From contig OZ253470.1 in assembly GCA_965261735.1 (NCBI GenBank), positions 4,122,980-4,186,979 of the forward strand: 64,000 bases of DNA, given 5' to 3'. Within the stretch, counting starts at the first letter, position 1; each line of letters opens with the position of its first letter. Under the pieces are notes generated by a model. It saw only the letters and a list, made by a program, of their open reading frames with translations, was not told the DNA's origin and did not search any database. The DNA comes from Alphaproteobacteria bacterium (GTDB taxonomy: Bacteria > Pseudomonadota > Alphaproteobacteria > SHVV01). Position numbers and translations under genes: made by a program. Below are positions 38,042 through 59,180 of this stretch, in pieces.

Positions 38042-38821
38042 TTGAATGATGTCGGCGATCTGGTGCGAGCCGTCCAGGCGACGCCACTTCTTGCTGGCCG
38101 ACTGGCACAGCGGGCCACGCAGCGCACCGAGGCGCTGGAGCGTCTCGAAGCCGATCTCGAAACACTGATGCAGGTGGAGGGCCTGGCCATGCGCCCCGGC
38201 CCTCGCCAACCAATCGACGCGGCATTGGTCTCGCTCCTGTGCGAGGCCATTCTGACCCGCTGGACGGTGGAATTCCGCTACCTCGCCCAGTCGACAAGGA
38301 GATCAAGCCGCCAGCGTGTCGAGCCATACGGTTTGCTCTACGGCACCCGCGCCTTTCTGGTCGGGCGGACCGACTGGAGCGAGGAACCGCGCCTCTGGCG
38401 CCTTGCCAACATCGGCGATGCCCGGATCACCGGCGAGCGGTTCGAGCGGGACCCGGAATTCGACCTGCAGCACTACTCCAGACGGTCGTTCGGCACGTTC
38501 CAGGAAAAACCCGTTCAGGTGACCCTGCGTTTCGATGCCAAGGCAGCGCCGGACGCCTCGGCCTTCCTCTTCCACCCGGACCAGTCCATCGAAAAGCACA
38601 GCGACGGCACGCTCACGGTGCGCTTCAAGGCCGGCGGCATCAACGAGATGTGCTGGCATCTGGTCACTTGGGGCGAGAGCGTCACCGTTGAGAAGCCCGT
38701 CCGGCTGCGCCACCGCCTGGCCAGGATGTGCGCATCGCTCGCTGCGCATCCAGGATGTGCGCATCGCTCGCTGCGCATCATGGGGAAGATGCAAGTCCTT
38801 GAATTTCTTGGGCCGATTTAA
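38042..38821 (+). CDS. WYL-domain protein (WYL + WCX-like C-terminal), apparently lacking the N-terminal HTH, with a 29-bp tandem duplication altering the 3' end
   Basis: FRYLAQ...RVEPYGLLYGTRAFLVG WYL core. No HTH upstream. 3' end contains a perfect 29-bp direct duplication. Confidence 0.55.
   Translation: MNDVGDLVRAVQATPLLAGRLAQRATQRTEALERLEADLETLMQVEGLAMRPGPRQPIDAALVSLLCEAILTRWTVEFRYLAQSTRRSSRQRVEPYGLLYGTRAFLVGRTDWSEEPRLWRLANIGDARITGERFERDPEFDLQHYSRRSFGTFQEKPVQVTLRFDAKAAPDASAFLFHPDQSIEKHSDGTLTVRFKAGGINEMCWHLVTWGESVTVEKPVRLRHRLARMCASLAAHPGCAHRSLRIMGKMQVLEFLGPI
38722..38779. repeat. Perfect 29-bp tandem duplication (CAGGATGTGCGCATCGCTCGCTGCGCATC x2)
   Basis: Directly read in sequence. Length is not a multiple of 3, so it frameshifts the WYL-protein C-terminus. 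Confidence 0.8.
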
Positions 38822-39421: not shown

Positions 39422-39970
39422 ATGAATACCGAAGCCGGAAACCCGGACCCAGAACATCCAGGCCCGATCCATGCCGGCTGGAACACATCTGAATTCTTTG
39501 AAAATGCCACAGCAGAGGACGTGGCGCATTGCTTGGGATCCGGCGCGGATGTGCAGGCGCGTGACAAGTACGGATGCTCGCCCCTGCACTTTGCGGCTCG
39601 CCTCGGCTCTCTGGAGGTGATCGCGGCGTTGCTCGCCGCCGGCGTCGATCCAAAAGCGTCTGCCGAAGATGGACGCATCCCCCTGCATTTTGCGGCTCGC
39701 TGGGGCTCCCCGGGGGCAGTCGCGGCGCTGCTCGCCGCTGGTGCCGACCTGAAAGCATGCGACAGGCGTAGACGCACACCGTTGTTCTGGGCAGCACTTC
39801 GCGACTGCTCTTGTGCGGTTATGGCGCTGCTCGCCGCCAGCGCCGATCCGAAGGCGTGTGCCGAAGACGGATGCTCGCCCCTGCACGTCGCGGCTCGCTG
39901 GGGCTCTCCGGATGCGATCGCGGCGCTGATCGCCGCGCGTGCTCTTGGTCGTGATGAACGAGGCGTTTGA
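39422..39970 (+). CDS. Ankyrin-repeat protein (4-5 repeats)
   Basis: Repeated GCSPLHFAARLGSLEVIAALLAAGVDPKA units. Confidence 0.65.
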   Translation: MNTEAGNPDPEHPGPIHAGWNTSEFFENATAEDVAHCLGSGADVQARDKYGCSPLHFAARLGSLEVIAALLAAGVDPKASAEDGRIPLHFAARWGSPGAVAALLAAGADLKACDRRRRTPLFWAALRDCSCAVMALLAASADPKACAEDGCSPLHVAARWGSPDAIAALIAARALGRDERGV

Positions 39971-43232: not shown

Positions 43233-44038
43233 GGTGCTGTCAACTTAACGAAGGCAGGTCGCAGTTGAACGTCTGAACTGAGCGGCTCAAGCAGCAGCGG
43301 TCACGGTCCGCCACGTGTTCATCGCGTCACCGCGGAATTGGCGCATTGTCTTGCGAGTGATCAGATGACGTTGGACATTGAAGGTGTTGTAGATGGCGGC
43401 GTGGGTGGAGAGAAACCTTTGCGCCGATCCTGATGACTTGAAGCCCTGCATCCTGCGTTCTCGTTGTCGAACCGGCAGGTGCGAATTCTCCGCCCGATTA
43501 TTGCTCCGTCCGCCGGTAACGTGTTTCCCCGTCATGTTGAGATCACGCAATGCTGCCCCGTAAGATGGCAGTTTATCGGTCACCACCTTATTCGGCGCAT
43601 ACCCCTGCTTCTTGAGCAGTTTGCGCATCAGCTTGAGTGCTGCTTTCTTGTTCCTCCGGGACTGAACCGGGATATCCAGCACCTCACCCTCGCTGTCCAC
43701 CGCCCGCCATAGATACATCCGTTTTCCGTTGATGGAGGAAAACACCTCATCAAGGTGCCACCGGTCGTCTGGTCGAGGGCGTGATTGTCTCAGTTTTCGG
43801 GCATAGGCCTGCCCAAACTTTAAAGACCAGCGCCGTATCGTCTCGTAAGAAACATCGACACCACGTTCAGCGAGCAGATCCTCCACATCGCGGTAACTGA
43901 GCGGAAACCGGAAACACAGCCAGACGGCGCGCTGGATTATCTCTGCAGGAAACCGATGTCGGCGGTAGCTGATCTTGTTCATAACAGGAAGCTACTCGCC
44001 ACCCGCAGCTGACACCAGCCAGTTACCGTGACAGCACC
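43233..44038 (-). mobile_element. IS6-family insertion sequence
   Basis: ~806 bp. Terminal inverted repeats GGTGCTGTCA... at 43233 and (reverse complement) at 44038. Single IS6-type transposase. Confidence 0.7.
43287..43982 (-). CDS. IS6-family transposase
   Basis: MNKISYRRHRFP N-terminus and DDE region typical of IS6/IS26-like transposases, 231 aa. Confidence 0.85.
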   Translation of the reverse strand: MNKISYRRHRFPAEIIQRAVWLCFRFPLSYRDVEDLLAERGVDVSYETIRRWSLKFGQAYARKLRQSRPRPDDRWHLDEVFSSINGKRMYLWRAVDSEGEVLDIPVQSRRNKKAALKLMRKLLKKQGYAPNKVVTDKLPSYGAALRDLNMTGKHVTGGRSNNRAENSHLPVRQRERRMQGFKSSGSAQRFLSTHAAIYNTFNVQRHLITRKTMRQFRGDAMNTWRTVTAAA

Positions 44039-44155
44039 GATCGCCGAAGCGGTGCCCGAGGAAGATCCGGCCGAGCTCATCCGTGAAGTGCTGATTCTCG
44101 AAAGGGAAATCACAAAGGGACTCGAATTACTCTTGGCAGAGGTGGAGGGCCAGTA

Positions 44156-45976
44156 ATGGGCGAGCAATCTGCTTTCACGATCGAATCGAACGACTTGGCG
44201 ATCGCCCAGATTTTCAAGGATTTCTACGCCGTCCCCGACTTCCAGCGCGAATACGTCTGGGAGCGCGAGCACGTCGAGAAGCTCCTCGAGGACGTGCTCG
44301 ATGAGTTCTATGACGAAGATGCTCGGCTGATCGAAGGCCCAGAATACTTCCTGGGCAGCATTGTCTCCTGCCGTGACCATGAAGGGATCTTTCATCTCAT
44401 CGACGGCCAACAACGGATGACGACCATCTACCTTGTTCTGTGCGCTGCGCGTGACGCCTTGAGAGATGCCGACGATAAGCCCACGCGGGTCCTCGAGGCG
44501 CAAATTTCCTACACCTACTCCGATCCCAAAACGGGCGAAGACGTAGAGCGACATCGGCTCACCCTTCAGTACGAGGACAGCGATGGCATCTTGGAAAAAC
44601 TCGTAAAGGCTGACCAACCAGTCTCAGGCCTTCCTGAAACCACGGAGTCCGTGAGGAAGATACTCGCCGCCTATCGGACGATTCGAGAGTTTTTCTCGGT
44701 AAACCTGAGGGACGAACCAGCCGCGATCAAGAGATTCCTGGTGGCCTTCACCGGCCGCATCAAGCTGATCCGCATCCTCACACCGACGATCACCAACGCC
44801 CTGAAGGTGTTCGAGACCATTAACGATCGTGGAGTGGGCTTGAACGCCGTGGATCTCCTGAAGAACCTCCTCTTCATGAAGACGTCCACCGAGGATTATC
44901 CGAAGCTCAAGGATCGTTGGTAAATCCTGATCGACGTTCTCGATGACTGTGGCGAAAAGCCGCTGCGGTTTCTTCGTTACTACATCATGTCGCACTACGA
45001 GATCGACTATAGCCGCAGCATTCGCGAAGACGAAATCTACGACTGGTTCGTCAAGAATACGGAGGTCTGCGGCATCGACCATGATCCACTCGGTTTTGCT
45101 GAAGCGTTAACCGAGTGCGCACGGGCACACGCCAATTTCCTCTCTTCCAAGGACCGCCAGGGCAACGACAACCGATATCTTCGGAACCTCACCCTGCTCG
45201 GCGGCGCGCTTCGCCAGCAGCACATCCTCCTCCTTGCCGGTCGCCATCTCGCGCCCGATCTCTTCGACCAGCTGTGTCGCACCATCGAGAGCCTTTTCTT
45301 CTGTTACATCATCACGCGCGAACCGACCAAGACCTTCGAGCGAAATTTCGCCCGATGGTCGGGGGAGTTGCGCAGCTGCGAATACGCGGCCGCCCTTGAT
45401 GCCTTCCTGAACAAATATCTCATAGCGGACCTACGGGGGCGCACCGAACGGTTCGACTTCGCCTTCCGGGAACTCACACAATGGAACATCCAGCAGTACC
45501 GCATGCGGTACATCCTGGCGAAGCTCACCGAGTACATCGAGGAACAGGCATGGGGCAGCCCCACCTACGCCCAACTGGACCGCTACACGGACAAATCGGT
45601 CCACGTCGAGCACATACTGCCGCAGACACCCACTGCGGAGGTTCGGGAGGCATTCGACAAACCGGGCGAGTATGATGACTACCTCAGCCGGCTCGGTAAC
45701 CTTACGCTGCTGGAGAAGACCATCAACAGCTCGGTCTCCAACGGCAGCTATACCGACAAGGGGCCGGGGTATAGGCAGTCCTCTTTCCTGCTTACCAAGT
45801 CGCTAGCCGAGAAGCCGCACGTCGGGACCAACACTCAGCTGAACCGGGCGGTGGCCGATCTGATTCAGTTCGATTGCTGGAACTCGCAGACGATCGTACA
45901 GCGCCAGGAAATGCTGACCGCGCTGGCGCGAAAGGTATGGGACATGCCGTCGGGCACCAAGGAGGCAACGGGATGA
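44156..45976 (+). pseudogene. DUF262 (ParB/Srx-like, DGQQR) + DUF1524 (HNH-like) GmrSD-family type IV restriction-like gene, split by an in-frame TAA at 44921-44923
   Basis: ORF 44156..44923 has DGQQR (DUF262). ORF 44987..45976 has VEHILPQ (DUF1524). Both are in the same frame, separated by one stop codon. Confidence 0.6.
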
Positions 45977-47271
45977 TTTGGCCCCCAGTGCCCCTTGAGA
46001 AGCTCGCGCGTGCTTCTGGCGGAAGCACACCCAAGCGTAACAACGATTCCTATTGGAATGGCGATGTCCCTTGGGTGACCCCTTCAGACTTGCCAGCACC
46101 AGGAGCATCGATCGTCGATGTGGAGGACACCAAGGACCACATCACACAGGAGGGGCTCAATTCCTGTTCCGCCCTGCTCTTGCCGCCTGAAACGGTGCTC
46201 TTCTCCTCCCGCGCGACCATTGGGAAAATCGGTATTGCCAAGGTTCCTTTAGCGACCAACCAGGGCTTTGCGAATTTCACGCCCAACCTTGGTGTTGAGC
46301 CAAAGTATCTTGCATATGCGCTTCGGTATTTTACGCCACAGATCACCGCACTGGCCGGTTCTACTACCTTCAAGGAAGTGAGCCGGGGCGCGATCCGCAA
46401 ATTCCAGATCCCTCTCCCGCCCCCTTCGGAGCAGAAGCGAATCGTCGAAATTCTCGATCAGGCCGATGCGCTCCAGCGTGAATGTGCAGAGGCGGACGCA
46501 AAGAAACAGCGTATCCTACCAGCGCTATTCACGAGAATGTTCGGAGACCCGGCTACCAACCCCATGGGGTGGCCGACCGCACCGATGGGTGATGTTGTTG
46601 AGATTGGTACAAAACTTGTTGATCCAAACGGGAGTACGTATCTCGATCTGCCGCATATTGGTGGAGAAGAAATCGAAAAGAACACCGGCCGCATCCTTTC
46701 TACTAAATTAGTACGCGATAGCAAACTTCGAAGCAGCAAATTTCATTTCACGCGGGAACATATTCTTTATTCGAAGATTCGTCCTTATCTAAATAAAGTT
46801 TCCTATCCCGGTTTCGAAGGACTTTGTAGCGCGGACATTTACCCTCTACGTCCAAAAGATAACCACACCACAACATGGTATCTTGTAGCGCTTCTTCGCT
46901 CAACGTCCTTCCTCTGCTATGCAAACTTGCATTCAGAGCGGCTGCGAATGCATAAGTTGAATCGCGAGCAGTTGGGAGCGTTCAAAACACCTTTGCCCGA
47001 TCCTGAGTTACTGGAGGCTTTCGAGCAACGGGCACAGTCATTGGCCACATTTGACGTTAGTCGTTTTCACCGAGCTCGTGAAACGAAAACATTGTTCCAC
47101 GTCATCATTCATCGATCCTTCTCTGGCGAGCTCACCGCCAAATGGCGCGACAGCCACACCGATGAGCTATTGCGAGAAGCTCAGGAACAAGCGGAGGCGC
47201 TGGAGACGGTGTGTGCCGGAACCTCGACCGGCCCCCGCCGCGGACGGCCTTTGAAAGCGGTGTCATGTTGA
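45973..47271 (+). CDS. hsdS: Type I restriction-modification specificity subunit HsdS (two TRDs), orphan
   Basis: Conserved S-subunit central and C-terminal repeats (FQIPLPPPSEQKRIVEILD, TPLPDPELLEAFEQ). The second TRD is markedly AT-rich. No hsdM or hsdR in the window. Confidence 0.8.
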   Translation: MIWPPVPLEKLARASGGSTPKRNNDSYWNGDVPWVTPSDLPAPGASIVDVEDTKDHITQEGLNSCSALLLPPETVLFSSRATIGKIGIAKVPLATNQGFANFTPNLGVEPKYLAYALRYFTPQITALAGSTTFKEVSRGAIRKFQIPLPPPSEQKRIVEILDQADALQRECAEADAKKQRILPALFTRMFGDPATNPMGWPTAPMGDVVEIGTKLVDPNGSTYLDLPHIGGEEIEKNTGRILSTKLVRDSKLRSSKFHFTREHILYSKIRPYLNKVSYPGFEGLCSADIYPLRPKDNHTTTWYLVALLRSTSFLCYANLHSERLRMHKLNREQLGAFKTPLPDPELLEAFEQRAQSLATFDVSRFHRARETKTLFHVIIHRSFSGELTAKWRDSHTDELLREAQEQAEALETVCAGTSTGPRRGRPLKAVSC

Positions 47272-48944
47272 CAGCGATTCGCCTCGGCAATTTCAAGGCA
47301 TTCGGGGCGACCCAACGGGTGCCTTTGAAGCCCCTCACTCTAGTCTTTGGCCCCAATAGTGCCGGCAAATCGAGCATTATTCACAGTTTGGCGCTCGCAC
47401 ACGAGGCCCGTCGAAGCGGAAATCTCGACGCTTTCCGGACCGACGTCGGCGGCACATCGATCGATCTGGGCGGCTTTCGCCAGTATGTGTTTCGCCGCGA
47501 CCCTTCCCATCGTGTCGAGTTGGCGATGGAAATCGATGTCTCCAAGCTCTCTGGACGGTTGGCAGAAATACTGGCGCCCATACGCACCGCAGCAGTGTCG
47601 GTCAATTTCGGTTTACCTGTGGATGATCACGGTTATGCGCCAAGCGACGCATTGACTGAATTAGAGAGTTATAAGGTCGAAGGGGATGGGTCCGATCTAC
47701 TACGTATGAGCAGGCGCCCAGGCGGCAATCTCCATCTTGATCGTCTGGCGAACGAACATCCAGTGTTTCGCCAAGTCCTCAAGGCGATCGTCGAGACGGG
47801 CACTACCACTTCCGAACTCAGGAACGAAGACCAAAAGGTCCTTGATGAGACCATCGCCGACCTTATTCCGATGCTAAAGGTCAAAGCCGGGCGTTTTCTC
47901 CCAGATGGAATAGAGGGCACTTCGGAACAGGCCGAGAGTGGGGCCGCCGAAGCCATGCTCTTCCCCGTCGGTCGCGGCAGCAGATCAGAGGATCTGGCCG
48001 GTGCAGTTCGCTTCTATTTGCCGCGCATTCTGAATGAGTTGATCGGTGGGCTGGATCATGAGGTCGGTGAACAGATAGAGCGGCTTCAATATCTAGGGCC
48101 GCTTCGCTCGTACCCGCCCCGCCATCTGGCGTTTTCCGAACACGACGACGCGAACTGGCACGCCGGGGGCGGCTATGCGTGGGACGTGCTCCGGCGAGAC
48201 TGGATGGTCAGGGAGCAAGTCAACAAGTGGCTTGGGGCTAATTGGCTCAAGACCAACTACCAACTTGTGCTACGGGAATTTGTCGCGATGGATCAACTTG
48301 ACAAACCGCTTTCAACTGCATTCGAGACCTTTGAAGGCGACGACCAAGTCCTTGACCTTGAGGTAGATTACGATCATTCGAGCGGAGAACCTTCAGGTCA
48401 ATACCCGGTTATTAAAGACGCTGACGAAGCAATATCTCGCATCCGAACGTGTATCGAAATGTCCGACATCGACAAATTAGCGGAGTTAATCCTTGTCGAT
48501 CAAAGCACGGAGACCGTGGTTAGCCACCGGGACGTCGGCATCGGCATCTCGCAGGTTTTGCCGGTCCTTGTCTCGTGCTACGGCCTTCGCGACCAGATCG
48601 TCGCGATCGAGCAGCCGGAGATCCATCTGCACCCAGCGCTTCAGGCCGAGCTAGGCGATGTCTTTATTCAGTCGGCGCTCGGCGACAATAACAATGCCTT
48701 CGTTCTAGAGACCCATTCCGAACATTTGATCCTCAGGATCATGCGCCGAATTCGCGACACCGCCGATGATAGACTCCCTTCCGGTGTTCCTGCCGTCAAG
48801 CCCGACGACGTTTCGGTGATTTTTGTTGAACAAACGAAGGTGGGAGCAATCGTTCGGGTGCTCCAACTCGACACCGACGGCGAGTTTACCGATTCCTGGC
48901 CAGGCGGTTTCTTTGAAGAGGGCTTCAGAGAACGGTTCACTTAA
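47265..48944 (+). CDS. ABC-type AAA ATPase (AAA_15/21-like with DUF3696-like C-terminus), defense-associated
   Basis: N-terminal LTAIRLGNFKAF...FGPNSAGKSS Walker A. Distal Walker B/D-loop IVAIEQPEIHLHPALQ. ~560 aa, OLD/RecF-like split ATPase layout. Confidence 0.7.
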   Translation: MLTAIRLGNFKAFGATQRVPLKPLTLVFGPNSAGKSSIIHSLALAHEARRSGNLDAFRTDVGGTSIDLGGFRQYVFRRDPSHRVELAMEIDVSKLSGRLAEILAPIRTAAVSVNFGLPVDDHGYAPSDALTELESYKVEGDGSDLLRMSRRPGGNLHLDRLANEHPVFRQVLKAIVETGTTTSELRNEDQKVLDETIADLIPMLKVKAGRFLPDGIEGTSEQAESGAAEAMLFPVGRGSRSEDLAGAVRFYLPRILNELIGGLDHEVGEQIERLQYLGPLRSYPPRHLAFSEHDDANWHAGGGYAWDVLRRDWMVREQVNKWLGANWLKTNYQLVLREFVAMDQLDKPLSTAFETFEGDDQVLDLEVDYDHSSGEPSGQYPVIKDADEAISRIRTCIEMSDIDKLAELILVDQSTETVVSHRDVGIGISQVLPVLVSCYGLRDQIVAIEQPEIHLHPALQAELGDVFIQSALGDNNNAFVLETHSEHLILRIMRRIRDTADDRLPSGVPAVKPDDVSVIFVEQTKVGAIVRVLQLDTDGEFTDSWPGGFFEEGFRERFT

Positions 48945-48946
48945 AG

Positions 48947-49915
48947 GTGTTGGAATTGTTTTACGAATACGCGATCACGCCAGAAGTTTTCGACCCAGCC
49001 TTCTTAGCAGAAAACGGGGCGAACCCTGTGGTTATCACTCAGCTTCTCCGTGGAATTTGCGAAAACGAAATGATCGCCGTCCTGCATAAGAACGGATGGA
49101 GCAGAGACATTGCACAACGCATTGGTAGTGTGCCTTCACAGAAAAACAGAAACAAGCTCATGACGTTGTTGTCGGGTCTCAAGGACCGAAATCGGTTGGT
49201 ACGGCACCCAAAAGGACCGAACCATCCAAACGACAAATTGGAATGGCTGGTATTAGCTCGCGAAGCTCACAATCGTGCGCCACTTGACGCGCTCATGCTC
49301 ACCCCTGAATTGCTCAAGATTAGTGGCATGAATGATGAAATTTTGATTGAAGTTGATAGTGCGTTGGATTCGCGGGCTTGGCTTGCTCGAAAACGATCCG
49401 AGACAATCAAACAACGAGAAGAGGATTATCGAGGCTTGTTTCCGAAAATCCTGCGTCACTCAAAACGGCTTTACCTCATCGACCGCTTCTTCAGGCCCGA
49501 ACTGCGTCAATGGACTGACACGATTAAGATTTGCGACTCATTGATGGGGCAACGTGGCGGAGAACCGCTTCAGGGCATTATCGAGATACACACTGGCGAT
49601 CCTTCAAAGCGATGTTCGCCTCAACACGAAGCGGCGGCATGGGAACGTTGGAAGAGAGCGGAGTTCGTTCCAAATTTCCGCCACACGTTGTCAGTCGGGA
49701 TGTGGAAGAGATGCGACGACGGCAAACGCGTACATGACCGCTTCCTGATAACGGATCAGGTGGGGTTCTCGATTGCTGGTGGATTGGATTGCCTAAGGCC
49801 GCCATTTGGCACTCCGTCCGATACGATCTGGACACTGATGGATGAAGAGGAGCGACAGCTTTGGCTGAGCAAGTTTAGGGCGGACACAAGCCCTTACGAG
49901 AAAATTGAACCGTAG
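48947..49915 (+). CDS. Hypothetical 322-aa protein, partner of the ATPase (candidate effector)
   Basis: Starts 3 nt after the ATPase stop, co-oriented. No recognisable domain. Possible D...EVD...K nuclease-like motif. Confidence 0.5.
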   Translation: MLELFYEYAITPEVFDPAFLAENGANPVVITQLLRGICENEMIAVLHKNGWSRDIAQRIGSVPSQKNRNKLMTLLSGLKDRNRLVRHPKGPNHPNDKLEWLVLAREAHNRAPLDALMLTPELLKISGMNDEILIEVDSALDSRAWLARKRSETIKQREEDYRGLFPKILRHSKRLYLIDRFFRPELRQWTDTIKICDSLMGQRGGEPLQGIIEIHTGDPSKRCSPQHEAAAWERWKRAEFVPNFRHTLSVGMWKRCDDGKRVHDRFLITDQVGFSIAGGLDCLRPPFGTPSDTIWTLMDEEERQLWLSKFRADTSPYEKIEP

Positions 49916-50074
49916 CAGCGGTGAGCGAAATGTGAGGCGGCCTCGCCTTTTCGGACAGCTTGGCGGCTGAGTTAAGGTGTGACAACTTACAGCCCAAAAG
50001 GGCTATCTACACGAACATATACAGCGTTGCTCAATCCTCCTGATAATTACGATGTTACAATAGCTTGGCCTGTC

Positions 50075-50160
50075 CGCCATCAAAACAAATGGGACTGTTA
50101 ACCGTGTTTCATAAGGGAGGATCTGGCTCATCTTTGTTTGATGTTAAGCCGCTTGGCGTT
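50075..50160. repeat. Left ~86-bp terminal inverted repeat of nested IS21-family element (starts TGT)
   Basis: Reverse complement is ~95% identical to 54165-54250. Confidence 0.7.
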
Positions 50161-50341
50161 GATGGCCCAAGCGGTGGTTTTGGGTGGTCAGTTTTTGATC
50201 CTTTTTCCCTTTTTGTCAACGGCGGCGGGAATATGTACCGGGGCGGCGCTGCAAAAATGATGGAGTGGACGCCTCCTCCCGACGGCATCTGCATGTGCCA
50301 AGGTGGTGTTGTAGTTCGACCCCCTGAAGGAGGAGGCATCC

Positions 50342-51364
50342 GTGGAACAGGTTACCATCGTCGGGATTGATTTGGCGAAGCGCAGCTTTCAGCTTCATGG
50401 TGCTGGGGCGGACGGCTCTGTCGTGTTCCGCAGGAAGCTGAGCCGGGAGAGATTGCTGGACTTTCTCGCTTCTCAGCCGCGCTGCGTGGTCGCGATGGAG
50501 GCTTGCGCGGGCGCTCACCAATGGGGCCGCGAGATCGGAGAGCTCGGCCACGAGGTGAGGTTGCTCCCGCCGGTCTACGTCAAGCCGTTCGTGAAGCGGC
50601 ATAAGAACGACATGGCGGATGCAGAGGCGATCTGCGAGGCGGCGCAGCGCCCGACGATGCGCTTCGTGGCGGTGAAGACGAAAGAACAGCAGGCCAGGGG
50701 AATGCTGTTCCACACGCGCGACCTTCTGGTGCGCCAGCGCACGCAGACGATCAACGCGTTGCGGGGCCACCTGGCGGAGTTTGGCGTTGTCGCGCCGCAG
50801 GGACCGGCTCATGTCGATCGGCTGGCATCGGCCCTCCAGGGTCCAGGTTCAGGGCTGCCAGGATCGGTCCGTGAGCTGGGCGCCCTTCTGCTCGATCGGA
50901 TCGAGGACCTCGATGCGAAGATCGACGGATTGAGGAGGGAGCTCCGCGCCCGCGCGTGTCAGGACGAAGAGGCGGCACGGCTCATGACGATCCCCGGCAT
51001 TGGGCCGATCACCGCAATGGCAATCCAGGCCTTCGCACCGCCGATGGAGAGCTTCCGACGCGGCCGCGACTTCGCGGCCTGGCTCGGGCTCGTGCCGCGA
51101 CAGCACACGACCGGCGGCAAGCCAAGGCTTGGCAGGATATCGAAGATGGGCCAACGCGATCTGCGGCGGCTGTTGATCACGGGCGCCATGGCTGTGGTCA
51201 GCTGGGCGGCTCGGCGTGGCGCGACGAACGACCCCTGGCTGGCCAGGATGCTGGCCCGCAAGCCGAGAATGCTGGTCGCGGTGGCGCTGGCCAACCGGAT
51301 GGCACGCATCATCTGGGCGCTGACAACGAAGAAGGAGAGCTACCGGGCTCCCGCCGCCGCCTGA
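50342..51364 (+). CDS. IS110-family transposase
   Basis: N-terminal DEDD/RuvC-like (VGIDLAKRSFQL) and C-terminal conserved region (MTIPGIGPITAMAIQA). ~390 bp non-coding downstream. Confidence 0.85.
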   Translation: MEQVTIVGIDLAKRSFQLHGAGADGSVVFRRKLSRERLLDFLASQPRCVVAMEACAGAHQWGREIGELGHEVRLLPPVYVKPFVKRHKNDMADAEAICEAAQRPTMRFVAVKTKEQQARGMLFHTRDLLVRQRTQTINALRGHLAEFGVVAPQGPAHVDRLASALQGPGSGLPGSVRELGALLLDRIEDLDAKIDGLRRELRARACQDEEAARLMTIPGIGPITAMAIQAFAPPMESFRRGRDFAAWLGLVPRQHTTGGKPRLGRISKMGQRDLRRLLITGAMAVVSWAARRGATNDPWLARMLARKPRMLVAVALANRMARIIWALTTKKESYRAPAAA

Positions 51365-51771
51365 GAGGACGGCGAAAGGCGGAGAGCCGTCGGGGATGTG
51401 GGCAGGTCGGAGGACAGGTAAGGGCAAACGGTCAATCGAGACGGGATCGGGAAAACCAGTCGTGGTACACGGAGCTTTCAAGCCCGCAAAAATGATCTTG
51501 GACCCGGTCCGCGCATCTCCATACAGGCCCGCGGCGTCAAACCAGCCGCATCATGAGGCCGGACAGATGACTGCACCTGACCGCATGTGCCGAACCGTCC
51601 GAAGAAAGGCTTGCATCAACGGAGGCGTCCACAGATGTACCACGGGCTCGGTGGTAGCTTGTCCGCATAGTCCATGGGAGGGACCCGCGCGCGGGGCGAC
51701 GCGCCCTCCGCGCGGCTGGCGGCGGCCCGCGCGTGAGAGGGGCGTGTGGGCCCACGCGGGCAAGCGGGGGG

Positions 51772-52536
51772 TTATTCGGACGGTTGCCGGCGTCGTGACC
51801 GGCTCTGCTTGAGCCGGTAGCTCTCGCCGTTCATCTCCAGGATATGGACATGGTGGGTGATGCGGTCGAGCAGCGCGCCGGTGAGGCGCTCGCTGGCGAA
51901 GACCGTCGTCCATTCCTGGAAGGGCAGGTTTGAGGTCACGATGGTGGCGCCGTTCTCGTAGCGCCGGCTGAAGACGTCGAACAGCAGCTCGCTTCCGGTC
52001 TGCGACAGGGGCACGTAGCCGAGCTCGTCGACGATCAGGAGATTGACCCTGGCGAGCTGGGCCTGGAGTCGGAGCAGCCTCTTCTCGTCGCGCGCCTCGA
52101 TCAGCTCGTGGACCAGGTGGGGGGCGGTGGCGAAGCGCACGCCGAGGCCCTTCTGGCAGGCGGCGAGGCCGAGGGCGAGAGCGACATGGGTCTTTCCGAC
52201 GCCGCTCGGGCCGAGCAGGATTACGTTCTCGCGGCGCGCGATGTACTCGCCGCGGGCGAGATCCAGCACCAGCATCTTGTTGAGCGCCGGGATCGCCTTG
52301 AAGTCGAAGCTCTCGAGCTGTTTGACGACAGGGAACCCGGCCTGCTTGATACGCCGTTCGACGAGGCGGCGCTCGCGGTCGATCAGCTCCAGCTCCACCA
52401 GCCGGGCCAGGAACTGCACATGATCCAGGCCCTCGGCCGCGCACTGGCGCGCCAGTTTCTCGTATTCCCGCAGGAAGGTCGGCAGCTTCAGCCTCTTCAG
52501 GTGATGTTCGAGCAGGATGCGGGGGGCCTCAGCCAT
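51772..52536 (-). CDS. istB: IS21-family helper ATPase IstB
   Basis: Walker A GPSGVGKTH, Walker B LLIVDELGY. Start at MAEAPRILLEHHL. Confidence 0.85.
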   Translation of the reverse strand: MAEAPRILLEHHLKRLKLPTFLREYEKLARQCAAEGLDHVQFLARLVELELIDRERRLVERRIKQAGFPVVKQLESFDFKAIPALNKMLVLDLARGEYIARRENVILLGPSGVGKTHVALALGLAACQKGLGVRFATAPHLVHELIEARDEKRLLRLQAQLARVNLLIVDELGYVPLSQTGSELLFDVFSRRYENGATIVTSNLPFQEWTTVFASERLTGALLDRITHHVHILEMNGESYRLKQSRSRRRQPSE

Positions 52537-54031
52537 GGCCGGCCCCTCCGGCCAGCAGGATGGCGTAGTCGGCGCTCCGCGTGGCGGCGACGAAGGGCTG
52601 GGGCAGGTGCGGATAGCGCGACAGGTCGAGATGCACGGGCCGCCTCTCGATGCGCGCCAGCAGGAGATGCTTGACCGCATCGAAGCCGATCAGGCGCCGC
52701 TTCACCGCGTCGCGCACCGCGGCCGCCACCTGCCGTTCCGGGAAGTCTTCGTGCAGGCGCAGCACCTGGATGTATTCGCGCTTGCCGCGCGGGCCGAAGC
52801 GGGCTTCGAGGAGGCGGCGCAGCGTGTCGAAGGCGGGATCGAGCTTCCATCCCCGCAGCGGCGCCGCCTGGTCCAGGGCGCCCGGCTTCTTCTCCAGCAG
52901 CGACAGATAGTGCAGCGGGTCGTAGATGACGTCGCCGCGGACATAGGAGCGCCGATGGCGGGCGACGATCTCGGCGCCGAGCGCGATCTCGACCCGGTCG
53001 ACATAGCCCTTCACCATGACCTTCTTGTGGGCGTGCGCCGCCGGCGCCGAGTAGTCCACCAGCCGGTAGCGCACCAGGGCCGTGGACGAGATCTGGCCCG
53101 GCACATGCTCGCAAGCCTCGAAGGGAACCGCCGGCAGATCGCGCAGGGCCTCGAGATCGGCCAGCGCCGCCGCCGCCTGCCCCCCTGCCTCCAGCGCGTC
53201 GAGCCGCTCAAGGCAGCGCGCCAGCAGCCGCTCGTTCAGGACCGACAGGTCATGCACCTTCGGGATCGGCACCATGAACCGGCGCCGTGCCGTCTTCACC
53301 AGGGCCTCGACCTTGCCCTTGTCGTTGCCCTTGCCGGGCCGGCCGAAGCGGTCGCGGAACAGGTAGTGCGATTGCAGATGCGTGAACGCCTGCGTGCGCC
53401 GACGCGTGCCGTCGCCCAGGATCCTCGCCACCGCAAGCGTCGTGTTGTCATAGAGGATCGATCGCGGCACACCGCCGAGGAAGGCGAAGGCGCTGACATG
53501 GCCGTCCAGGAAGGCCTCCGTCGTCTCCCTCGGATAGGCCTTGACGAACCAGACGTTGGAATGGGGCAGGATCAGGCAGAAGAAGGCAACCTTCTCCCGC
53601 CTGCCCCCGACCTCCACCACCGCCTCGCCGAAGTCGACCTGGGCATGGCCCGGCGGGTGATGCAGCGGCACAAAAGCCTCGCGCGTCGACTGCCGCCGAG
53701 CCCGGACATAGTCCTTCACGATGGTATAGCCGCCGGTGAACCCGTGCTCGTCCCGTAGCCGCTCGAATATCCGGTGCGCCGTGTGGCGCTGCTTGCGCGG
53801 CACGTCCGGATCCGTGTCCGCCTCCAGGATCGCGTCGACGATGCCGGTGAACCCGTCCAGCTTGGGCCGCCGGACCGGCTTCGTCCGGCGGTAGCCCGGT
53901 GGCGCCGAGTAGGTCAGCATCTTCTTCACCGTGCGACGGTCGATGCCGAACCGCCGGCCCGCCTCGTGATGACTCAGACCCTCGTCGACAACCGCCAGTC
54001 GAACCGCCGCATAGAGCTCCACGCCGTACAT
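52529..54031 (-). CDS. istA: IS21-family transposase IstA
   Basis: HTH N-terminus, DDE core (HAQVDFGE ... LYDN). Overlaps istB by 8 nt. Confidence 0.85.
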   Translation of the reverse strand: MYGVELYAAVRLAVVDEGLSHHEAGRRFGIDRRTVKKMLTYSAPPGYRRTKPVRRPKLDGFTGIVDAILEADTDPDVPRKQRHTAHRIFERLRDEHGFTGGYTIVKDYVRARRQSTREAFVPLHHPPGHAQVDFGEAVVEVGGRREKVAFFCLILPHSNVWFVKAYPRETTEAFLDGHVSAFAFLGGVPRSILYDNTTLAVARILGDGTRRRTQAFTHLQSHYLFRDRFGRPGKGNDKGKVEALVKTARRRFMVPIPKVHDLSVLNERLLARCLERLDALEAGGQAAAALADLEALRDLPAVPFEACEHVPGQISSTALVRYRLVDYSAPAAHAHKKVMVKGYVDRVEIALGAEIVARHRRSYVRGDVIYDPLHYLSLLEKKPGALDQAAPLRGWKLDPAFDTLRRLLEARFGPRGKREYIQVLRLHEDFPERQVAAAVRDAVKRRLIGFDAVKHLLLARIERRPVHLDLSRYPHLPQPFVAATRSADYAILLAGGAGHG

Positions 54032-54164
54032 CTCGTGCCCCTCGTCGCAACCGACAAGGGACCATGAGTGGCACAATTTTGCGCCGCCGCGACCGGACCG
54101 CCCGGCCGCCTCGCGTGGAGCATTATTCCTCCGCCGTTAACAACCGCCGCTTGAACCATCAAAG

Positions 54165-54250
54165 CCAAGCGGCTTAACATCAAACAAAGATGAGCCAGAT
54201 CCTCCCTTATGAAACACGCTCAACAGTCCCATTTGTTTTGATGACGGACA
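54165..54250. repeat. Right ~86-bp terminal inverted repeat of nested IS21-family element (ends ACA)
   Basis: Matches the reverse complement of 50075-50160 with 3-4 mismatches. Confidence 0.7.
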
Positions 54251-54313
54251 GGCAGGCCCGCGCGGAAGCACCTTGATCGCCCAGCCGGAAGCGCCTTGTT
54301 CGAGTGCGGGGCG

Positions 54314-55558
54314 CTAGGCCGCGCGCTTATCGAAACGCCGGGTCCGCCTGCGGCGCTTGCGGGGGCTCGGTGCCGGTCGAGGCGCCGCGCCCTTGCCGTT
54401 ATTGCCCGACGCGGCCACAGTCTCGTCCGGCGCCTCGCCGACAACCCGCAATGACTCTTTGATCAACCGCTCGATCGCGCGCAGTTGCGGCCGCTCGCTG
54501 GCATCGCAGAACGAGATCGCGATGCCCGCGGCGCCCGCGCGCGCGGTGCGGCCGATCCGGTGAACGTAGCATTCGGGCTCGTTCGGCAGCTCGTAATTGA
54601 TGACGTGGGTGACGTCGTCGACGTCAAGCCCGCGCGCGGCGACATCGGTGGCCACCAGCACCCGCACTTCTCCGGTGCGGAAGTTTTCGAGCGCCCGTTG
54701 GCGCGCATTTTGGGACTTATTGCCATGCAGCGCATCGGCACTGACCCCGCCAAGGGCGAGCCGTTTGACCACCTGGTTGGCGCCGCGTTTGGTGCGCGTA
54801 AATACCAGCACCTTTTTGAGATCGGGTGCGGCAAGAAGCTTGGCCAGAAGATCGCGTTTCGAGGCCGTGGCGAGGTGATGGACGTGTTGCTCGACGCGCT
54901 CCACCGCCACCCTCTTGGCCGCGATTTCGACCCGTTCAGGCTCGAACAGGACCTCGCCGGCGAGCTTCGCAACCTCGGCCGGCATGGTCGCCGAAAAGAG
55001 CTGTGTCTGCCGCTCATCAGGCAGCATCGCCACGATCTTACGCACGTCGCGGATGAAGCCCATGTCGAACATGCGGTCGGCCTCGTCGATGATGAGGTAT
55101 TCGCACTGGCTCAAATCGGCGCGGCGCTGCTGCGCGAGATCGAGAAGCCGGCCCGGCGTGGCAACCAGAATGTCGACGCTGCGGCGCAGCGCCTCGATCT
55201 GGGGCCGCTGGGGGACGCCGCCCATGACGACCGCCTGGCGAAATTGCAGGTGCCGCCCATAGGTCTTGATGCTGCTGGAGATCTGTAGCGCGAGTTCGCG
55301 CGTGGGCGCGAGAATTAGCGCTCGCGTCGTCCACGGCGAAGCCTTGACGCCGTCTTCGACGAGGTTCTGCAGAAGCGGCAGCGTGAACGCCGCTGTCTTG
55401 CCGGTGCCCGTCTGGGCGATACCGAGCAGATCCATGCCGTCCAGCAGGTACGGAATGGCGCGACGTTGAATGGGGGTGGGGGTGTCGTACTGCGCGTCTT
55501 CAAGCGCGCGTAAAAGCCGCTCGGAGAGCCCGAGTTCGGCGAAAGCTGAAACTGTCAA
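54314..55558 (-). CDS. rhlE: DEAD-box ATP-dependent RNA helicase (RhlE-like) with basic C-terminal tail
   Basis: Q-motif, AQTGTGKTAAF, DEAD (IIDEADRM), SAT, HRIGRTARAG. TTG start with AAGGA RBS. Confidence 0.8.
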   Translation of the reverse strand: MTVSAFAELGLSERLLRALEDAQYDTPTPIQRRAIPYLLDGMDLLGIAQTGTGKTAAFTLPLLQNLVEDGVKASPWTTRALILAPTRELALQISSSIKTYGRHLQFRQAVVMGGVPQRPQIEALRRSVDILVATPGRLLDLAQQRRADLSQCEYLIIDEADRMFDMGFIRDVRKIVAMLPDERQTQLFSATMPAEVAKLAGEVLFEPERVEIAAKRVAVERVEQHVHHLATASKRDLLAKLLAAPDLKKVLVFTRTKRGANQVVKRLALGGVSADALHGNKSQNARQRALENFRTGEVRVLVATDVAARGLDVDDVTHVINYELPNEPECYVHRIGRTARAGAAGIAISFCDASERPQLRAIERLIKESLRVVGEAPDETVAASGNNGKGAAPRPAPSPRKRRRRTRRFDKRAA

Positions 55559-55863
55559 AGATACAAATTCCTTGTTACGGAGACCCGGCGCGCGCGGAGG
55601 CGAGCGATCAGGGCTAACCGTGTCCTTCTTTTCCACGCGCACTTAGATCAGACGGGGATTGGATGAAATATCCTCGCGGTAATAAGCCCGTTTCGACGGG
55701 CAGATCGCGCGACCGCGAGGAACGCTGCCTTTCAAATGAGCCCTCCCGCCTCGAAAGTCAAGGTGTGGGCCGAAAATCGGATCGTCAAACGTCGAGCACC
55801 AGGTCGGTCGTAAGGGGTGCGAGTCTCGCATGGCAGTGATGTCTGCGGCTTGGTTCGTTGAGT

Positions 55864-57130
55864 TCAGGCAGCGATTGCCATGGCTGCTGCACGTGGACTG
55901 ATGTTGTCGTTGGCCGGTGTGTCGGTTGCGCTGATCAGGGCCTTCCATGCGCGCTCGAAGCGGCCGGATTTGATCAGGGCGCGGAAGGTCAGAACAGCCT
56001 GTCCGCCGACGATCCGCCAGCGCATGCCGGAGCGCTTCATTTGCTGTGTCACCAGGGTCTTGTTGGCAGCCTCGACCACGCCTGAGCCGATGGCGATGCC
56101 CTCTTCCTTCAGGGCGTGGTAGCGCATGCGATGGCGATGCTTGCGGAAGAAGGCGAGTTCCCGCTCGGTCTCGGCCCGGTCCGGCGCAGCGGCGGCATCG
56201 CGAAGGTGGCGCAGCGCCCGGATCACCTTGGCGACGCCACGGGGATCGTGACGGAGGATCTCGCGGTACTTCTCGAACCAGCCGGGCGCCACGGCATGGT
56301 CGGACGCGGTTTGCAGATGTTCGCAAGCATGCCAGAAGTCGATCACCTCGGTTTCGGGCGACAGGGTCTCCAGGAAGGTCCAGTTGTCGGCGGCGCCATC
56401 GGCGATAGCGACGATCCCGATCTCGGGGCGTGCTCGCCTGATGTGTGCGACTTCGCTTGCAAGCTGCGCCTTCAGCGTGAGCTTGCCGCTCTCCGGCATG
56501 CGGCCGGGATAGAGGGTCTTCAGGCGCTTGCCCTCGGCGTCGTGGAAGGGAGACCGTGCCGCAGGCGGCCTCGCGCAAGGAGGCCTTGGCGCGACCGTCC
56601 TCGCCGGGTCTCAGCGGCACCATGACGCCGTCGAGGGAGACCGAGGCGGTGGTCGCGTCCTGCGGTATGCCCTCGGCCTCACGGATGCTGCCCAGCGTCT
56701 CCGGGCCGAGGCTCTCCCAGCATTCGTGCATGCTCAGGGTCAGGCGCTGCAGGGTGCTCACCGACGGCGTCATGGCGCCGGTCTTCGCAAAGAACGCCGC
56801 CGCTTCCCGGGCCGTGCAGTGACCCATCATCAGCAGACCGAGCTCGGCCGCCGGCCGCGTCAGGTAATCGTCGACGAGGCCCAGGCTCTCGTCGACCGGC
56901 ACCGGCGATGCCCCGCTCGCGCCGCTGCGGTAACGCGCTCGCCGGTAGGTCACCGGACCGAGCGAGGTCATGATCGTCTTCGGCGTCACCGCGACCCGGA
57001 ACCAGCTCTGCCCGTCCCGCTCGATCCGGGAAGCGCCATCGTCCCGGTTCTCGATGACGGCGCCCATGACATCGCGAGCGAACTCGTTCGTGGCCTCACG
57101 CACCCGCAACTCGACCTCCTCGGGCGCCTC
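55864..57130 (-). pseudogene. ISKra4-like family transposase interrupted by a frameshift near 56500
   Basis: C-terminal part in ORF 55864..56499 (WHACEHL, GSGVVEAANKTLVTQQMKRSGMRW). N-terminal part continues in another frame within track ORF 55643..57232. Confidence 0.5.
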
Positions 57131-57352
57131 GGGGCGCGGCTCGGAACAACCAGGTGGTGAAGTGCCCGCTCGAGGTTCACAAGCCTTGATGGCGAAACAT
57201 ATCTGACGCCTCCAACCGGTGCATTTGGGCAAGGCTGGACTGTTGCGATTATCTTTACGTGGGAGGCTCCGCCGTGAAGCCGCGGTATTGTCGTCCCCGT
57301 GTTGGTGTCATGGGGCAGCCTATGCCGTGAAGAAGCCCGGCAGCGGTGCCGG

Positions 57353-58717: not shown

Positions 58718-58721
58718 GGAC

Positions 58722-59171
58722 CTAACGCGCGCAGTGCTTGCGGATGCTGTGGGTAACGACGCCCCAGGCCTCGCAACCGGCATCGTCGAGGGCGATATCG
58801 GGAAAATCCGGGTTCTCGGCGTAGAGGATCAGGGCGCCATTGCTCTTTCTCAGGCGTTTGACCGTCAGCTCGCCATGCAGGACGGCGATGACGATATCGT
58901 CGGCCTGGGGCACGATGGCGCGGTCGACAACGAGAAGGTCGCCGTCGAAAATCCCGGCGTCGCGCATGGACTCGCCCTGCGCGCGGATGAAAAAGGTGGC
59001 CGCCGGGCGGCGGATCAGATGCAGATTGAGATCAAGCTTGCCCTCGATATGGTCGTCGGCGGGGCTTGGAAAACCGGCCGGCACCCTGGAGCCGTAAAGC
59101 GGCAGGGCGAGTTCGGAGGGCTGATCGGTGAAACGATGCAAGGGGACGACCTTCAATATCAATAGGAACAT
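58722..59171 (-). CDS. umuD: UmuD (LexA-like S24 peptidase)
   Basis: S24 catalytic Ser (GESM) and Lys (KRL) context. 5 bp upstream of umuC. Confidence 0.8.
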
Positions 59172-59180
59172 AACATGAAT
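59166..59180. promoter_or_regulatory. Putative alphaproteobacterial-type SOS box GAACATAACATGAAT (GAAC-N7-GAAT)
   Basis: Direct-repeat LexA box consensus GAAC-N7-GAAC with one mismatch, overlapping the umuD start codon. Confidence 0.35.

Follow-up and report, generated by a model that had tools for sequence, protein, structure and literature searches.

A Menshen-like pair of ATPase and effector genes, a probable anti-phage module, at the end of a truncated Type I restriction-modification operon

In the window, by which we mean the whole stretch of 64,000 nucleotides that was analysed, two ORFs follow each other on the + strand. One encodes an ATPase of 559 aa (47265-48944) and the other a partner protein of 322 aa (48947-49915), just as the original prediction of a ~560-aa ATPase with a co-oriented 322-aa partner had it. 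The ATPase starts with ATG at 47265, a longer GTG ORF from 47211 being the alternative. For the partner the start is either GTG 48947 (322 aa) or TTG 48956 (319 aa), which leaves a gap of 2-11 nt after the ATPase; the TTG position is the start in most homologues, and an AAAGG stands 8 nt before it. The pair is kept in more than 100 loci, and when it is compared with one of them that is 84-87% identical (L005), the ATPase gene shows a dN/dS of 0.07 and the partner gene one of 0.21. Judged by this conservation and by dN/dS, both genes are real.

The DNA upstream looks like the remnant of a Type I restriction-modification (R-M) operon, with signs of decay. An IS6-family element lies at 43233-44038 on the - strand, with a 231-aa transposase gene at 43287-43982 (DDE_Tnp_IS240, 5e-38) and terminal inverted repeats of 17 nt at 43233-43249 and 44022-44038. 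At its edge, at 44039-44041, begins the homology of the window to the operons of L005 and of a sister contig, L109; the last ~118 bp of an hsdM gene (44041-44158, + strand) align to the hsdM 3' end in both, and tblastn of the window found no further hsdM and no hsdR. In our reading of these alignments, hsdR and most of hsdM have been deleted by IS6. A GmrSD-like type IV restriction gene with DUF262 and DUF1524, whose presence had been correctly noticed before, follows on the + strand (44156-45976; GmrSD_N 3e-37, GmrSD_C 3e-27). It is split into two ORFs of the same frame by a TAA at 44921-44923, where L005 and L018 have AAA or AAG, and it is intact in L109 (606 aa); by this comparison we take the window copy to be a pseudogene, inactivated by the nonsense codon. 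Then comes hsdS, the gene of a Type I specificity subunit of 432 aa (45973-47271, + strand, ATG 45973; Methylase_S 2e-34, PADLOC Specificity_I 2e-80), for which the gene call in L109 is also 432 aa. The hsdS stop and the ATPase ATG share the letters ATGTTGA at 47265-47271. The operon hsdR-hsdM-GmrSD-hsdS-ATPase-partner is intact in L005 and nearly intact in L109. The hsdS gene is present as claimed, but it is not an unrelated orphan, being part of the same conserved operon as the pair. No promoter signal above chance was found upstream of the window pair, and the operon promoter is lost in the window.

Downstream, an IS21-family element that is not part of the system occupies 50068-54253 on the - strand (istA 52529-54076, istB 51772-52680, 112-nt terminal inverted repeats), and its insertion site is identical in L109. 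Nested in its end, on the + strand, is an IS110-family element (50260-51634; Transposase_20, DEDD_Tnp_IS110). This stretch of 1375 bp is missing from L109 while the flanks are 98.7-99.9% identical, hence the IS110 insertion is specific to the window. The mobile elements had been seen as the brackets of a two-gene cassette. The IS6 element and the nested IS21/IS110 are indeed there, but the pair between them is the 3' end of a Type I R-M operon truncated by IS6. The truncated WYL regulator that had also been mentioned is found at 38042-38821, lacking its HTH, but 9 kb away and beyond the IS6 element.

The 559-aa protein is an ABC ATPase of the SMC/OLD class that belongs to the NsnB / HEC-03 / PDC-M55 group. 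It carries the Walker A motif GPNSAGKSS and the Walker B motif IVAIEQPEIHLHP, and AAA_15/AAA_21 is followed by a C-terminal DUF3696 tail; DUF3696 scores 22.0 bits in the window protein, exactly at the cutoff, and is recorded in most relatives. The best-scoring PADLOC models are PDC-M55A (8e-43), NsnB (4e-42) and HEC-03B (1.7e-37), the NsnB match covering residues 1-552 and profile positions 1-334 of 345, and AriA models match at 2e-19. The fold is that of ABC/SMC proteins, with an SMC head as the top structural match, as for NsnB. E449-Q450, G425xG427 and WPGGFFEE are invariant in the relatives, so that Walker B ends in E-Q instead of D-E, and R281, also invariant in the family, is only a candidate for an arginine replacing the Q-loop. 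The family counts more than 5,000 relatives, and members linked to R-M genes can make up just a fraction of it.

The partner had been called a protein with no recognisable domain. This holds for single-sequence HMM searches, in which the ATPase matches AAA_15/AAA_21, DUF3696 and PADLOC defence models, whereas no Pfam, PADLOC or NCBIfam model matches the window partner even at E<=10. It does not hold for structure and family-level searches, which assign a PIN-like and a PLD-fold domain. In the structure model (pLDDT 87.7) the PIN-like domain takes up residues ~1-148, and a C-terminal domain of MIT_C/PLD fold residues ~150-322. Toprim/DUF4435 and HNH domains are absent, as had been noted. Foldseek matches the PLD fold to PLD3, Nuc and PLD2 at a probability of 0.95-1.0, lipid enzymes of this fold scoring equal to PLD nucleases, and Pfam MIT_C is matched by 18 of 70 partner relatives. 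In the model, D179 immediately follows the second strand of the C-terminal domain (174-178), and H263-D264-R265 immediately precedes its fifth (266-269). Across 70 sequences that are 20-37% identical to the window partner, H263 and R265 never vary, and an acidic residue always occupies position 179 (D in 69, E in 1); T269, D/N270 and Q271 are conserved as well. The family motif is H263-x-R265-x4-D/N270, with arginine in all 70 where the HxK(x)4D motif of HKD nucleases would have lysine, and proven PLD nucleases use a catalytic HxK. A candidate active site is thus D179...H263-x-R265-x4-D270. In the N-terminal domain E7 is the sole strongly conserved acidic residue (D or E in 91%), and given this residue the PIN-like domain may not necessarily be inactive. 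On the model we predict a nuclease-like effector, nuclease activity being what we infer from it.

The co-occurrence of the two genes, which the original prediction proposed as a check, is nearly complete: the ATPase lies directly 5' of the partner in 55 of 56 related loci. Among the 31 loci whose upstream DNA extends for at least 9 kb, a sample biased toward the closer part of the family, 29 have hsdM and hsdS upstream on the same strand and the pair at the 3' end, a near-exclusive siting of the kind known for PrrC-like genes. Directly 5' of the ATPase, in 55 loci, stands either hsdS or cargo (pP_pnuc_1, DUF3800, protein kinase, AAA_15 with DUF2130, DUF3644, RhuM). About two thirds of the related operons have 1-4 kb of such unrelated cargo between hsdS and the ATPase; where the two genes adjoin, the hsdS stop overlaps the ATPase start, and this coupling occurs in the window, L001 and L005. 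A DUF262 protein, searched for by tblastn with the N-terminal half of the window GmrSD and by Pfam on 10 intervening ORFs, is found in only 5 of the 31 loci, where it is of the GmrSD type with DUF1524 and lies between hsdM and hsdS. The pair occurs from Alphaproteobacteria to Planctomycetota, Nitrospirota and Bacillota, and whole operons are 85-95% identical between phyla, with just 31-50% for hsdS. Pairwise identities correlate between ATPase and hsdM with rho 0.88 and between partner and ATPase with rho 0.62, and the pair is present in two Type I lineages whose hsdM are ~33% identical to each other. By this gene order, the pair appears as the conserved tail of Type I R-M operons of the form hsdR-hsdM-(GmrSD)-hsdS-(variable cargo)-ATPase-effector. 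However, stand-alone pairs exist in L097 and L006, and distant relatives of the pair adjoin RAMP genes rather than R-M genes. Because of the variable cargo and the stand-alone pairs, an obligate physical link of the pair to the R-M enzyme is disfavoured.

The closest described system is Menshen. The window ATPase matches PADLOC NsnB over its full length at 4e-42. The motifs reported for NsnB are a replaced Walker B D-E, an R in place of the Q-loop, SGG changed to GxG and a DUF3696 tail (PMC12065111), and the ATPase has this set, with R281 as the candidate for the second of them. The partner follows the plan of NsnC, whose "inPIN + PB-PLD1" architecture was described in 2025 (Li et al., NAR 2025, PMC12065111): it has a PIN-like domain without the PIN acidic tetrad, and a PLD-like domain that we set beside PB-PLD1 by its description, D/E behind strand 2 and HDR ahead of strand 5 (PMC12065111). 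The order from ATPase to effector and the near-abutting genes are also alike. There are nevertheless clear differences. NsnA (ParB-DUF262 + ParBDB) adjoins the ATPase in none of the loci examined, the pair here closes Type I R-M operons, and the ATPase, with 559 aa against 345 NsnB profile positions, is ~200 aa longer. Since the published census of Menshen took NsnA as its seed, it would by design miss a clade of the window type.

HEC-03, an ABC ATPase with a PIN protein, was shown by experiment to protect, a function that requires both genes (Payne et al., bioRxiv 10.1101/2024.01.29.577857). It resembles our pair as a two-gene system of a related ATPase (PADLOC HEC-03B, 1.7e-37) and an effector of PIN-type fold, embedded in other defence operons. 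However, its effector is a VapC-like PIN protein without a PLD-like domain, the PADLOC model of that effector fails to hit the partner even at E<=10, and HEC-03 was found within Hma systems rather than at the tail of Type I R-M operons. The paper names the ATPase HEC-03A and PADLOC names it HEC-03B, so that the letters appear to be swapped. PDC-M55 and PDC-M56 are PADLOC candidates drawn from cassettes embedded in R-M, BREX and DISARM systems, and PDC-M55A is the best model for the ATPase; PDC-M55, however, is a cassette of three families (FAM_00005>>FAM_02935>>FAM_00004), and its non-ATPase models do not match the partner. In PARIS (AriA-AriB), Septu (PtuA-PtuB) and Gabija an OLD-class ABC ATPase likewise holds a nuclease effector and gates it. 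This effector is of the Toprim/DUF4435 or HNH type instead of PIN-like plus PLD-like, the DUF3696 tail is absent, and linkage to Type I R-M is not constitutive. Membership of the pair in PARIS was considered and rejected, an AriB-type Toprim/DUF4435 effector being absent. PrrC, RloC and RloA-RloB are defence genes that reside within Type I R-M operons (PrrC almost exclusively so) and suggest a logic of guarding the restriction enzyme. Their effectors are unrelated to the partner in sequence and fold, PrrC and RloC being single-chain ATPase-anticodon nucleases and RloB Toprim-like.

The locus had been proposed as a candidate uncharacterised anti-phage system. An anti-phage ATPase with its effector, of the OLD/ABC class, it very likely is, but its kind has already been described: the pair is related to Menshen and HEC-03, and it is the context that differs from Menshen. 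We think it quite probable that the two genes make up a Menshen-like anti-phage module at the conserved end of Type I R-M operons, and that the window operon is a remnant of one. AlphaFold 3 models of NsnB4-NsnC2 place the inPIN domain between the DUF3696 tails. By analogy with the published models of Menshen, Septu and PARIS, ATPase oligomers would hold the effector through their DUF3696 tails and its PIN-like domain; an infection cue would alter ATP binding or hydrolysis, the effector would be freed or activated, and its PLD-like domain would cut phosphodiester bonds of nucleic acid, which would stop the phage or the infected cell.

What the cue might be is more difficult to judge. The anti-restriction protein Ocr sets off PARIS, and we regard this as a lead for the R-M link of the pair, not as a test. 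If PrrC and PARIS are a guide, anti-restriction proteins that inhibit the Type I enzyme could be the trigger, and we would give a cue tied to this enzyme a little less than an even chance. It is tempting to go further and to speculate that in this clade the Type I complex has replaced NsnA as the sensor, the pair then serving the restriction enzyme as a built-in guard or as its second stage, with a PLD-like effector that is fired upon a blocked enzyme or failed restriction. This may be so, although we hold it rather unlikely; if true, the operon of seven to ten kb would as a whole make up a single immune system of two integrated layers, which moves between phyla in one piece.

The pair may instead work autonomously as a second defence layer, in the manner of abortive infection or of a toxin-antitoxin system, as HEC-03 or PARIS would, with an R-M enzyme that does no sensing and an embedding that favours co-transfer and co-expression. 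The two genes of HEC-03 suffice when cloned alone, R-M, BREX and DISARM operons harbour many defence genes with no known interplay, and the cargo that parts hsdS from the ATPase in most loci, the pairs that stand alone and the RAMP-linked distant relatives all suit this explanation. In contrast, the linkage to hsdM and hsdS in 29 of 31 loci, with the pair invariably co-oriented and at the 3' end, the correlation of ATPase with hsdM, the overlap of hsdS stop and ATPase start wherever both adjoin, and the mostly nonsynonymous changes of the partner after the loss of hsdR and hsdM in the window lineage speak against full autonomy. In our opinion it is a serious contender that falls just short of being favoured. 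Taken to its extreme, the same linkage could mean that both proteins are accessory subunits of the Type I enzyme, in translocation, restriction alleviation or cleavage, for example, and no separate immune module at all; the constant position at the operon end, the co-variation of the ATPase with hsdM/hsdR and the translational coupling to hsdS in three loci would fit. We consider this very improbable: the R-M-linked members are a fraction at most of the large ATPase family, the named families nearest to it consist of stand-alone defence ATPases, some pairs stand alone or beside RAMP genes, and other defence cargo is tolerated between hsdS and the pair. It is somewhat less improbable, but still unlikely, that the partner is no nuclease and that its MIT_C-like domain binds membrane or phospholipid, or serves as a regulator or adaptor, killing being due to membrane damage or to another protein. 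The MIT_C domain of MITD1 is known as a membrane-binding PLD fold that lacks the HKD motif, and not for catalysis, the partner family has HxR and not HxK, and lipid enzymes of the PLD fold score as high as the nucleases. Yet the invariant H263 and R265, the near-invariant D179 and the conserved T269, D/N270 and Q271 look more like the lining of a catalytic pocket than like a patch on the surface. NsnC, moreover, uses the same domain in an effector slot where PB-PLD1 is interchangeable with BECR RNases and Toprim nucleases (PMC12065111).

Whatever the role of the family elsewhere, the window copy of this presumed Menshen-like module might be a non-functional relic that is heading for pseudogenisation, and here we see the scales as evenly balanced. 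The deletion of hsdR/hsdM by IS6, the nonsense codon in GmrSD and the loss of the operon promoter, with no promoter-like site above chance left, all point to a relic. So do the substitutions relative to the sister contig L109: the partner has 11 nonsynonymous and 3 synonymous changes (Fisher p=0.02 against the ATPase), and 10 of these 11 arose on the window side, among them G41E and I116L, which alter positions that do not vary in 28/28 close relatives. P180R in the window partner adjoins D179. In the ATPase, W86L, L339F and P523Q fall on positions invariant in 24/24 relatives. However, the substitution counts are small, and the ATPase differs from that of L109 mostly by synonymous changes (15 vs 9). 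Both ORFs are of full length, with no frameshift or stop, and the candidate catalytic residues are all kept (K35, E449 and H484 in the ATPase; D179, H263 and R265 in the partner). The ORFs of the window pair are thus intact, and full selection is probably no longer acting on them.

The two same-strand ORFs of the original prediction are indeed present: an ABC ATPase gene at 47265-48944 (+; ATG start, 559 aa) and its partner at 48947-49915 (+; GTG start, 322 aa). In most homologues of the partner the start lies at the position of a TTG at 48956, 8 nt past AAAGG, and the stop of hsdS overlaps the start of the ATPase as ATGTTGA. Both are real genes: over 100 loci contain the two side by side, and dN/dS is 0.07 for the ATPase and 0.21 for the partner against an 84-87% identical locus in a Thalassospiraceae MAG (L005).

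The proposed class of the ATPase is borne out by HMM searches, in which the Pfam models AAA_15 (2e-18), AAA_21 (3e-16) and DUF3696 (exactly at cutoff) all matched, as did the PADLOC defence ATPase models PDC-M55A (8e-43), NsnB (4e-42, full length) and HEC-03B (2e-37); AriA (2e-19) and GajA rank far below these three. Invariant across 25 relatives are the Walker A motif GPNSAGKS, R281, the GxG signature (G425, G427), a Walker B ending in E449-Q450, H484 and the C-terminal WPGGFFEE. These motifs fit the deviations reported for NsnB, the Menshen ATPase, in which the Walker B D-E is replaced, an arginine stands for the Q-loop and GxG for SGG (PMC12065111). The invariant R281 is our candidate for the Q-loop-replacing arginine. 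The family is large: a cutoff of E<=1e-10 brings in over 5,300 proteins, and its usual name in the source databases is "DUF3696 domain-containing protein".

The partner had been described as lacking any recognisable domain. This holds for single-sequence HMM searches, where the window protein matched nothing in Pfam, PADLOC or NCBIfam even at E<=10, and a profile of the family likewise matched nothing among PDB sequences. It does not hold for structure: the AlphaFold model (29-sequence input, pLDDT 87.7) has two domains, one PIN-like and one PLD-like. When the C-terminal half was compared with known structures, PLD-superfamily proteins, nucleases among them, came second in order of likeness (SauUSI 9.3, NucT 9.2, NgoAVII 8.4, Zucchini 8.4, Nuc 8.0, Tdp1 7.3, BfiI 7.0), and Foldseek was consistent with a PLD fold. 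Conservation was measured over 70 sequences, 20-37% identical to the window protein. W100, H263 and R265 never vary, residue 179 is always acidic (D in 69 sequences, E in one), and T269, D/N270 and Q271 are conserved; in the model a strand at 174-178 leads into D179, and H263-D264-R265 precedes a strand at 266-269. Computation yields a predicted effector of two domains, with a PLD fold that bears a conserved D...HxR...D/N constellation. Eighteen of the 70 relatives match Pfam MIT_C (best 1.1e-6), with no second recurrent family, so the sequence evidence agrees with the domain reading based on structure. The N-terminal domain has a single strongly conserved acidic residue, E7, which fits an "inactive PIN" reading but does not prove it. 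The partner family can now be identified as Menshen-type effectors, PIN-like plus MIT_C/PLD-like, each the mate of an NsnB-type ATPase.

Nor is the family rare, as the 38 relatives returned by a word-indexed protein search had made it appear. Counted as clusters at 50% identity, an exhaustive profile search gave 1,801 representatives at E<=1e-3, 783 of these at E<=1e-10, and most of the 150 matches listed are full length, about 320 aa. In Moorella naiadis (L016:10001-10984) the partner is apparently interrupted, with a stop-to-stop ORF of 227 aa, though tblastn aligns it over its full length.

We inspected the neighbourhoods of the partner in 101 genomic and metagenomic loci, the metagenome scan using a 14-sequence subset of the alignment. 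The co-occurrence expected of a two-gene system is found: of the 56 loci that have enough sequence, 55 have the ATPase immediately 5' of the partner, and of the 31 that offer 9 kb or more, 29 have same-strand hsdM and hsdS upstream of the pair. The usual layout is hsdR-hsdM-(GmrSD)-hsdS-(variable cargo)-ATPase-partner. Among the exceptions to it are a stand-alone pair adjoining a WCX-domain regulator (L097), a pair without hsd genes (L006) and a truncated locus (L093). Gene linkage, the class of the ATPase with its motifs intact, and operon membership are shown here, all by computation. The hosts are Thalassospiraceae, Nitrospirales, Syntrophobacteraceae, Desulfobacterales and Planctomycetota, and further Moorella, Hydrogenedentes, Poribacteria and Binatia. 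Across loci the identities of ATPase and hsdM are correlated (rho 0.88), and the pair occurs in both of two Type I lineages that share about 33% identity in hsdM. Whole operons are 85-95% identical between different phyla while their hsdS genes are just 31-50% identical; hence the operon moves as a unit, with swapping of specificity.

The junction of hsdS and ATPase is a hotspot for other defence-type cargo, namely pP_pnuc_1 (a pPIWI-associated nuclease), DUF3800, a Ser/Thr kinase, an OLD-type AAA_15 ATPase with DUF2130, DUF3644 and RhuM (L007:7216-8352, L008:7499-8323, L009:5621-7668, L017:5093-8232, L013:6653-8131, L018:7795-8328). A hidden gene for NsnA, the ParB-DUF262 sensor of Menshen, was not found among the intervening ORFs examined in relatives, which are unrelated cargo. 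One subclade has a conserved 629-aa ORF starting 11-17 nt beyond the stop of the partner (L007:10995-12368, L012:10995-12884, L040:7046-8935, L042:1306-3195, L043:10989-12878, L045:2002-3891, L051:2393-4252), with weak similarity to the HsdR helicase region and followed in some loci by an ORF of 1,200-1,470 aa. This ORF may encode a third component or belong to a neighbouring system; as a general third component it is rejected, being absent from most loci. More distant partner-like proteins still come after a related ATPase. In two such loci, from a Nodosilinea MAG (L022:3703-10417) and an Anaerolineales MAG (L025:3797-10648; Pfam MIT_C 5.5e-5), RAMP-superfamily genes lie directly upstream of the ATPase and its distant MIT_C-like partner, and the same type of module may here be linked to machinery like that of type III CRISPR.

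How the pair relates to known systems can now be judged. It has the ATPase and the effector of Menshen but not the sensor, in place of which it has a fixed position ending Type I R-M operons; since NsnA is lacking, we stop short of classing it as Menshen itself. With HEC-03 (ABC ATPase plus PIN-domain protein) it shares the ATPase, whereas the effector model is not matched. The suggestion of an uncharacterised anti-phage system therefore stands in part. The inPIN plus PB-PLD1-type architecture was already published in 2025 (PMC12065111); the new element is their combination in a large clade, unannotated and without NsnA, that is fixed to the tail of Type I R-M operons. The partner family, with its roughly 1,800 clusters, has no model in Pfam, NCBIfam or PADLOC v2, and the module therefore escapes the defence-annotation tools now in use. 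The pair is also a concrete, testable case of ATPase-effector modules being joined to one upstream system or another, which is ParB-DUF262 for Menshen, Type I R-M for this clade and RAMP proteins for the two distant loci. Further, the partner makes it possible to test whether a PLD/MIT_C fold with HxR is catalytic, a question which the Menshen paper asks of MITD1 and BrxL (PMC12065111).

By analogy, the ATPase oligomer would clamp the PIN-like domain of the effector between its DUF3696 tails, as in the published AlphaFold 3 model of NsnB4-NsnC2 (PMC12065111). The effector might then be activated or released in an ATP-dependent manner, as in Septu and PARIS, and its PLD-like domain would cleave nucleic acid. 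HEC-03 is proven to be defensive and needs both genes (bioRxiv 10.1101/2024.01.29.577857). As to the Type I R-M link, we only tentatively propose that the pair senses through the enzyme, or senses that the enzyme is inhibited. The link could equally be no more than embedding. That defence genes may be embedded in R-M operons is an idea published in 2024 (bioRxiv 10.1101/2024.01.29.577857).

For the window genome the practical message is smaller, as the locus looks like a decaying remnant of a Type I R-M operon with the pair. The locus had been taken for an IS-bracketed cassette. A sister contig (L109) has hsdR, which an IS3-type element has cut, then hsdM, a GmrSD gene (DUF262 plus DUF1524) that is intact at 606 aa, hsdS, ATPase, partner and IS21, followed by the genes found downstream in the window, and L005 has a complete hsdR-hsdM-GmrSD-hsdS-ATPase-partner operon. 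In the window an 806-bp IS6 element (43233-44038) stands in place of all that lay to the left of the final ~118 bp of hsdM. Given this replacement and the intact operons of relatives, the cassette is the leftover 3' end of a Type I R-M operon; tblastn found no hsdR or hsdM elsewhere in the 64 kb. The window GmrSD has a single in-frame nonsense change, AAA to TAA, at 44921-44923 (AAA in L005). An IS110 (50260-51634) sits in the terminal-repeat region of the IS21 end, with ~3 bp shared at the junction; it is absent from L109, a recent and window-specific insertion. Neither the DNA nor the proteins of the cassette matched a plasmid collection, the IS21 part alone matching alphaproteobacterial plasmids (72-77%). 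Between window and L109 the island (44039-50259) is 98.65% identical, with 84 evenly spread substitutions and no indels, while the flank right of the IS110 insertion (51635-60323) is 99.92% identical. This ~17-fold gap in divergence suggests a separate history of the island, e.g. recombination or faster evolution.

Both ORFs of the pair are intact in the window and keep every candidate catalytic residue. The window copy nevertheless looks like one under relaxed constraint following the loss of the R-M genes, judging from small substitution counts. Against L109 the partner has 11 nonsynonymous and 3 synonymous changes, the ATPase 9 and 15 (Fisher's test p=0.02, on small counts), and for 10 of these 11 partner changes the window has the derived state. 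Among them, G41E and I116L fall at sites invariant in 28 of 28 close relatives, and three nucleotide changes within 13 nt (49068-49080) alter three residues of a conserved motif, turning NGMISDL, which includes G41, into NEMIAVL. A172S and P180R, the latter adjoining D179, are common to window and L109; the window ATPase deviates by W86L, L339F and P523Q. A promoter scan upstream of the window cassette gave no signal above chance. The L109 partner, called at 251 aa, is not truncated: the call is a start-codon artefact of the gene caller and the ORF is intact.

The truncated WYL regulator that had been noticed is confirmed as a 259-aa ORF at 38042-38821 (+) with WYL (7e-10) and WCX (6e-14) domains and without the N-terminal HTH; it lies 9 kb upstream of the pair, on the far side of IS6. 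A WCX-domain regulator recurs beside the stand-alone pair of L097. Nearby are an IS1595-family transposase (36089-37024, -) and an adjoining 204-aa ORF (37197-37811, -), whose weak, sub-threshold HSDR_N_2 match (E 0.002) means that it could be a stray restriction-subunit fragment. A gene for an ankyrin-repeat protein (39422-39970, +; Ank 1.5e-24) spans 3.8 copies of a 99-bp tandem repeat (39557-39936), which is unusual in bacteria.
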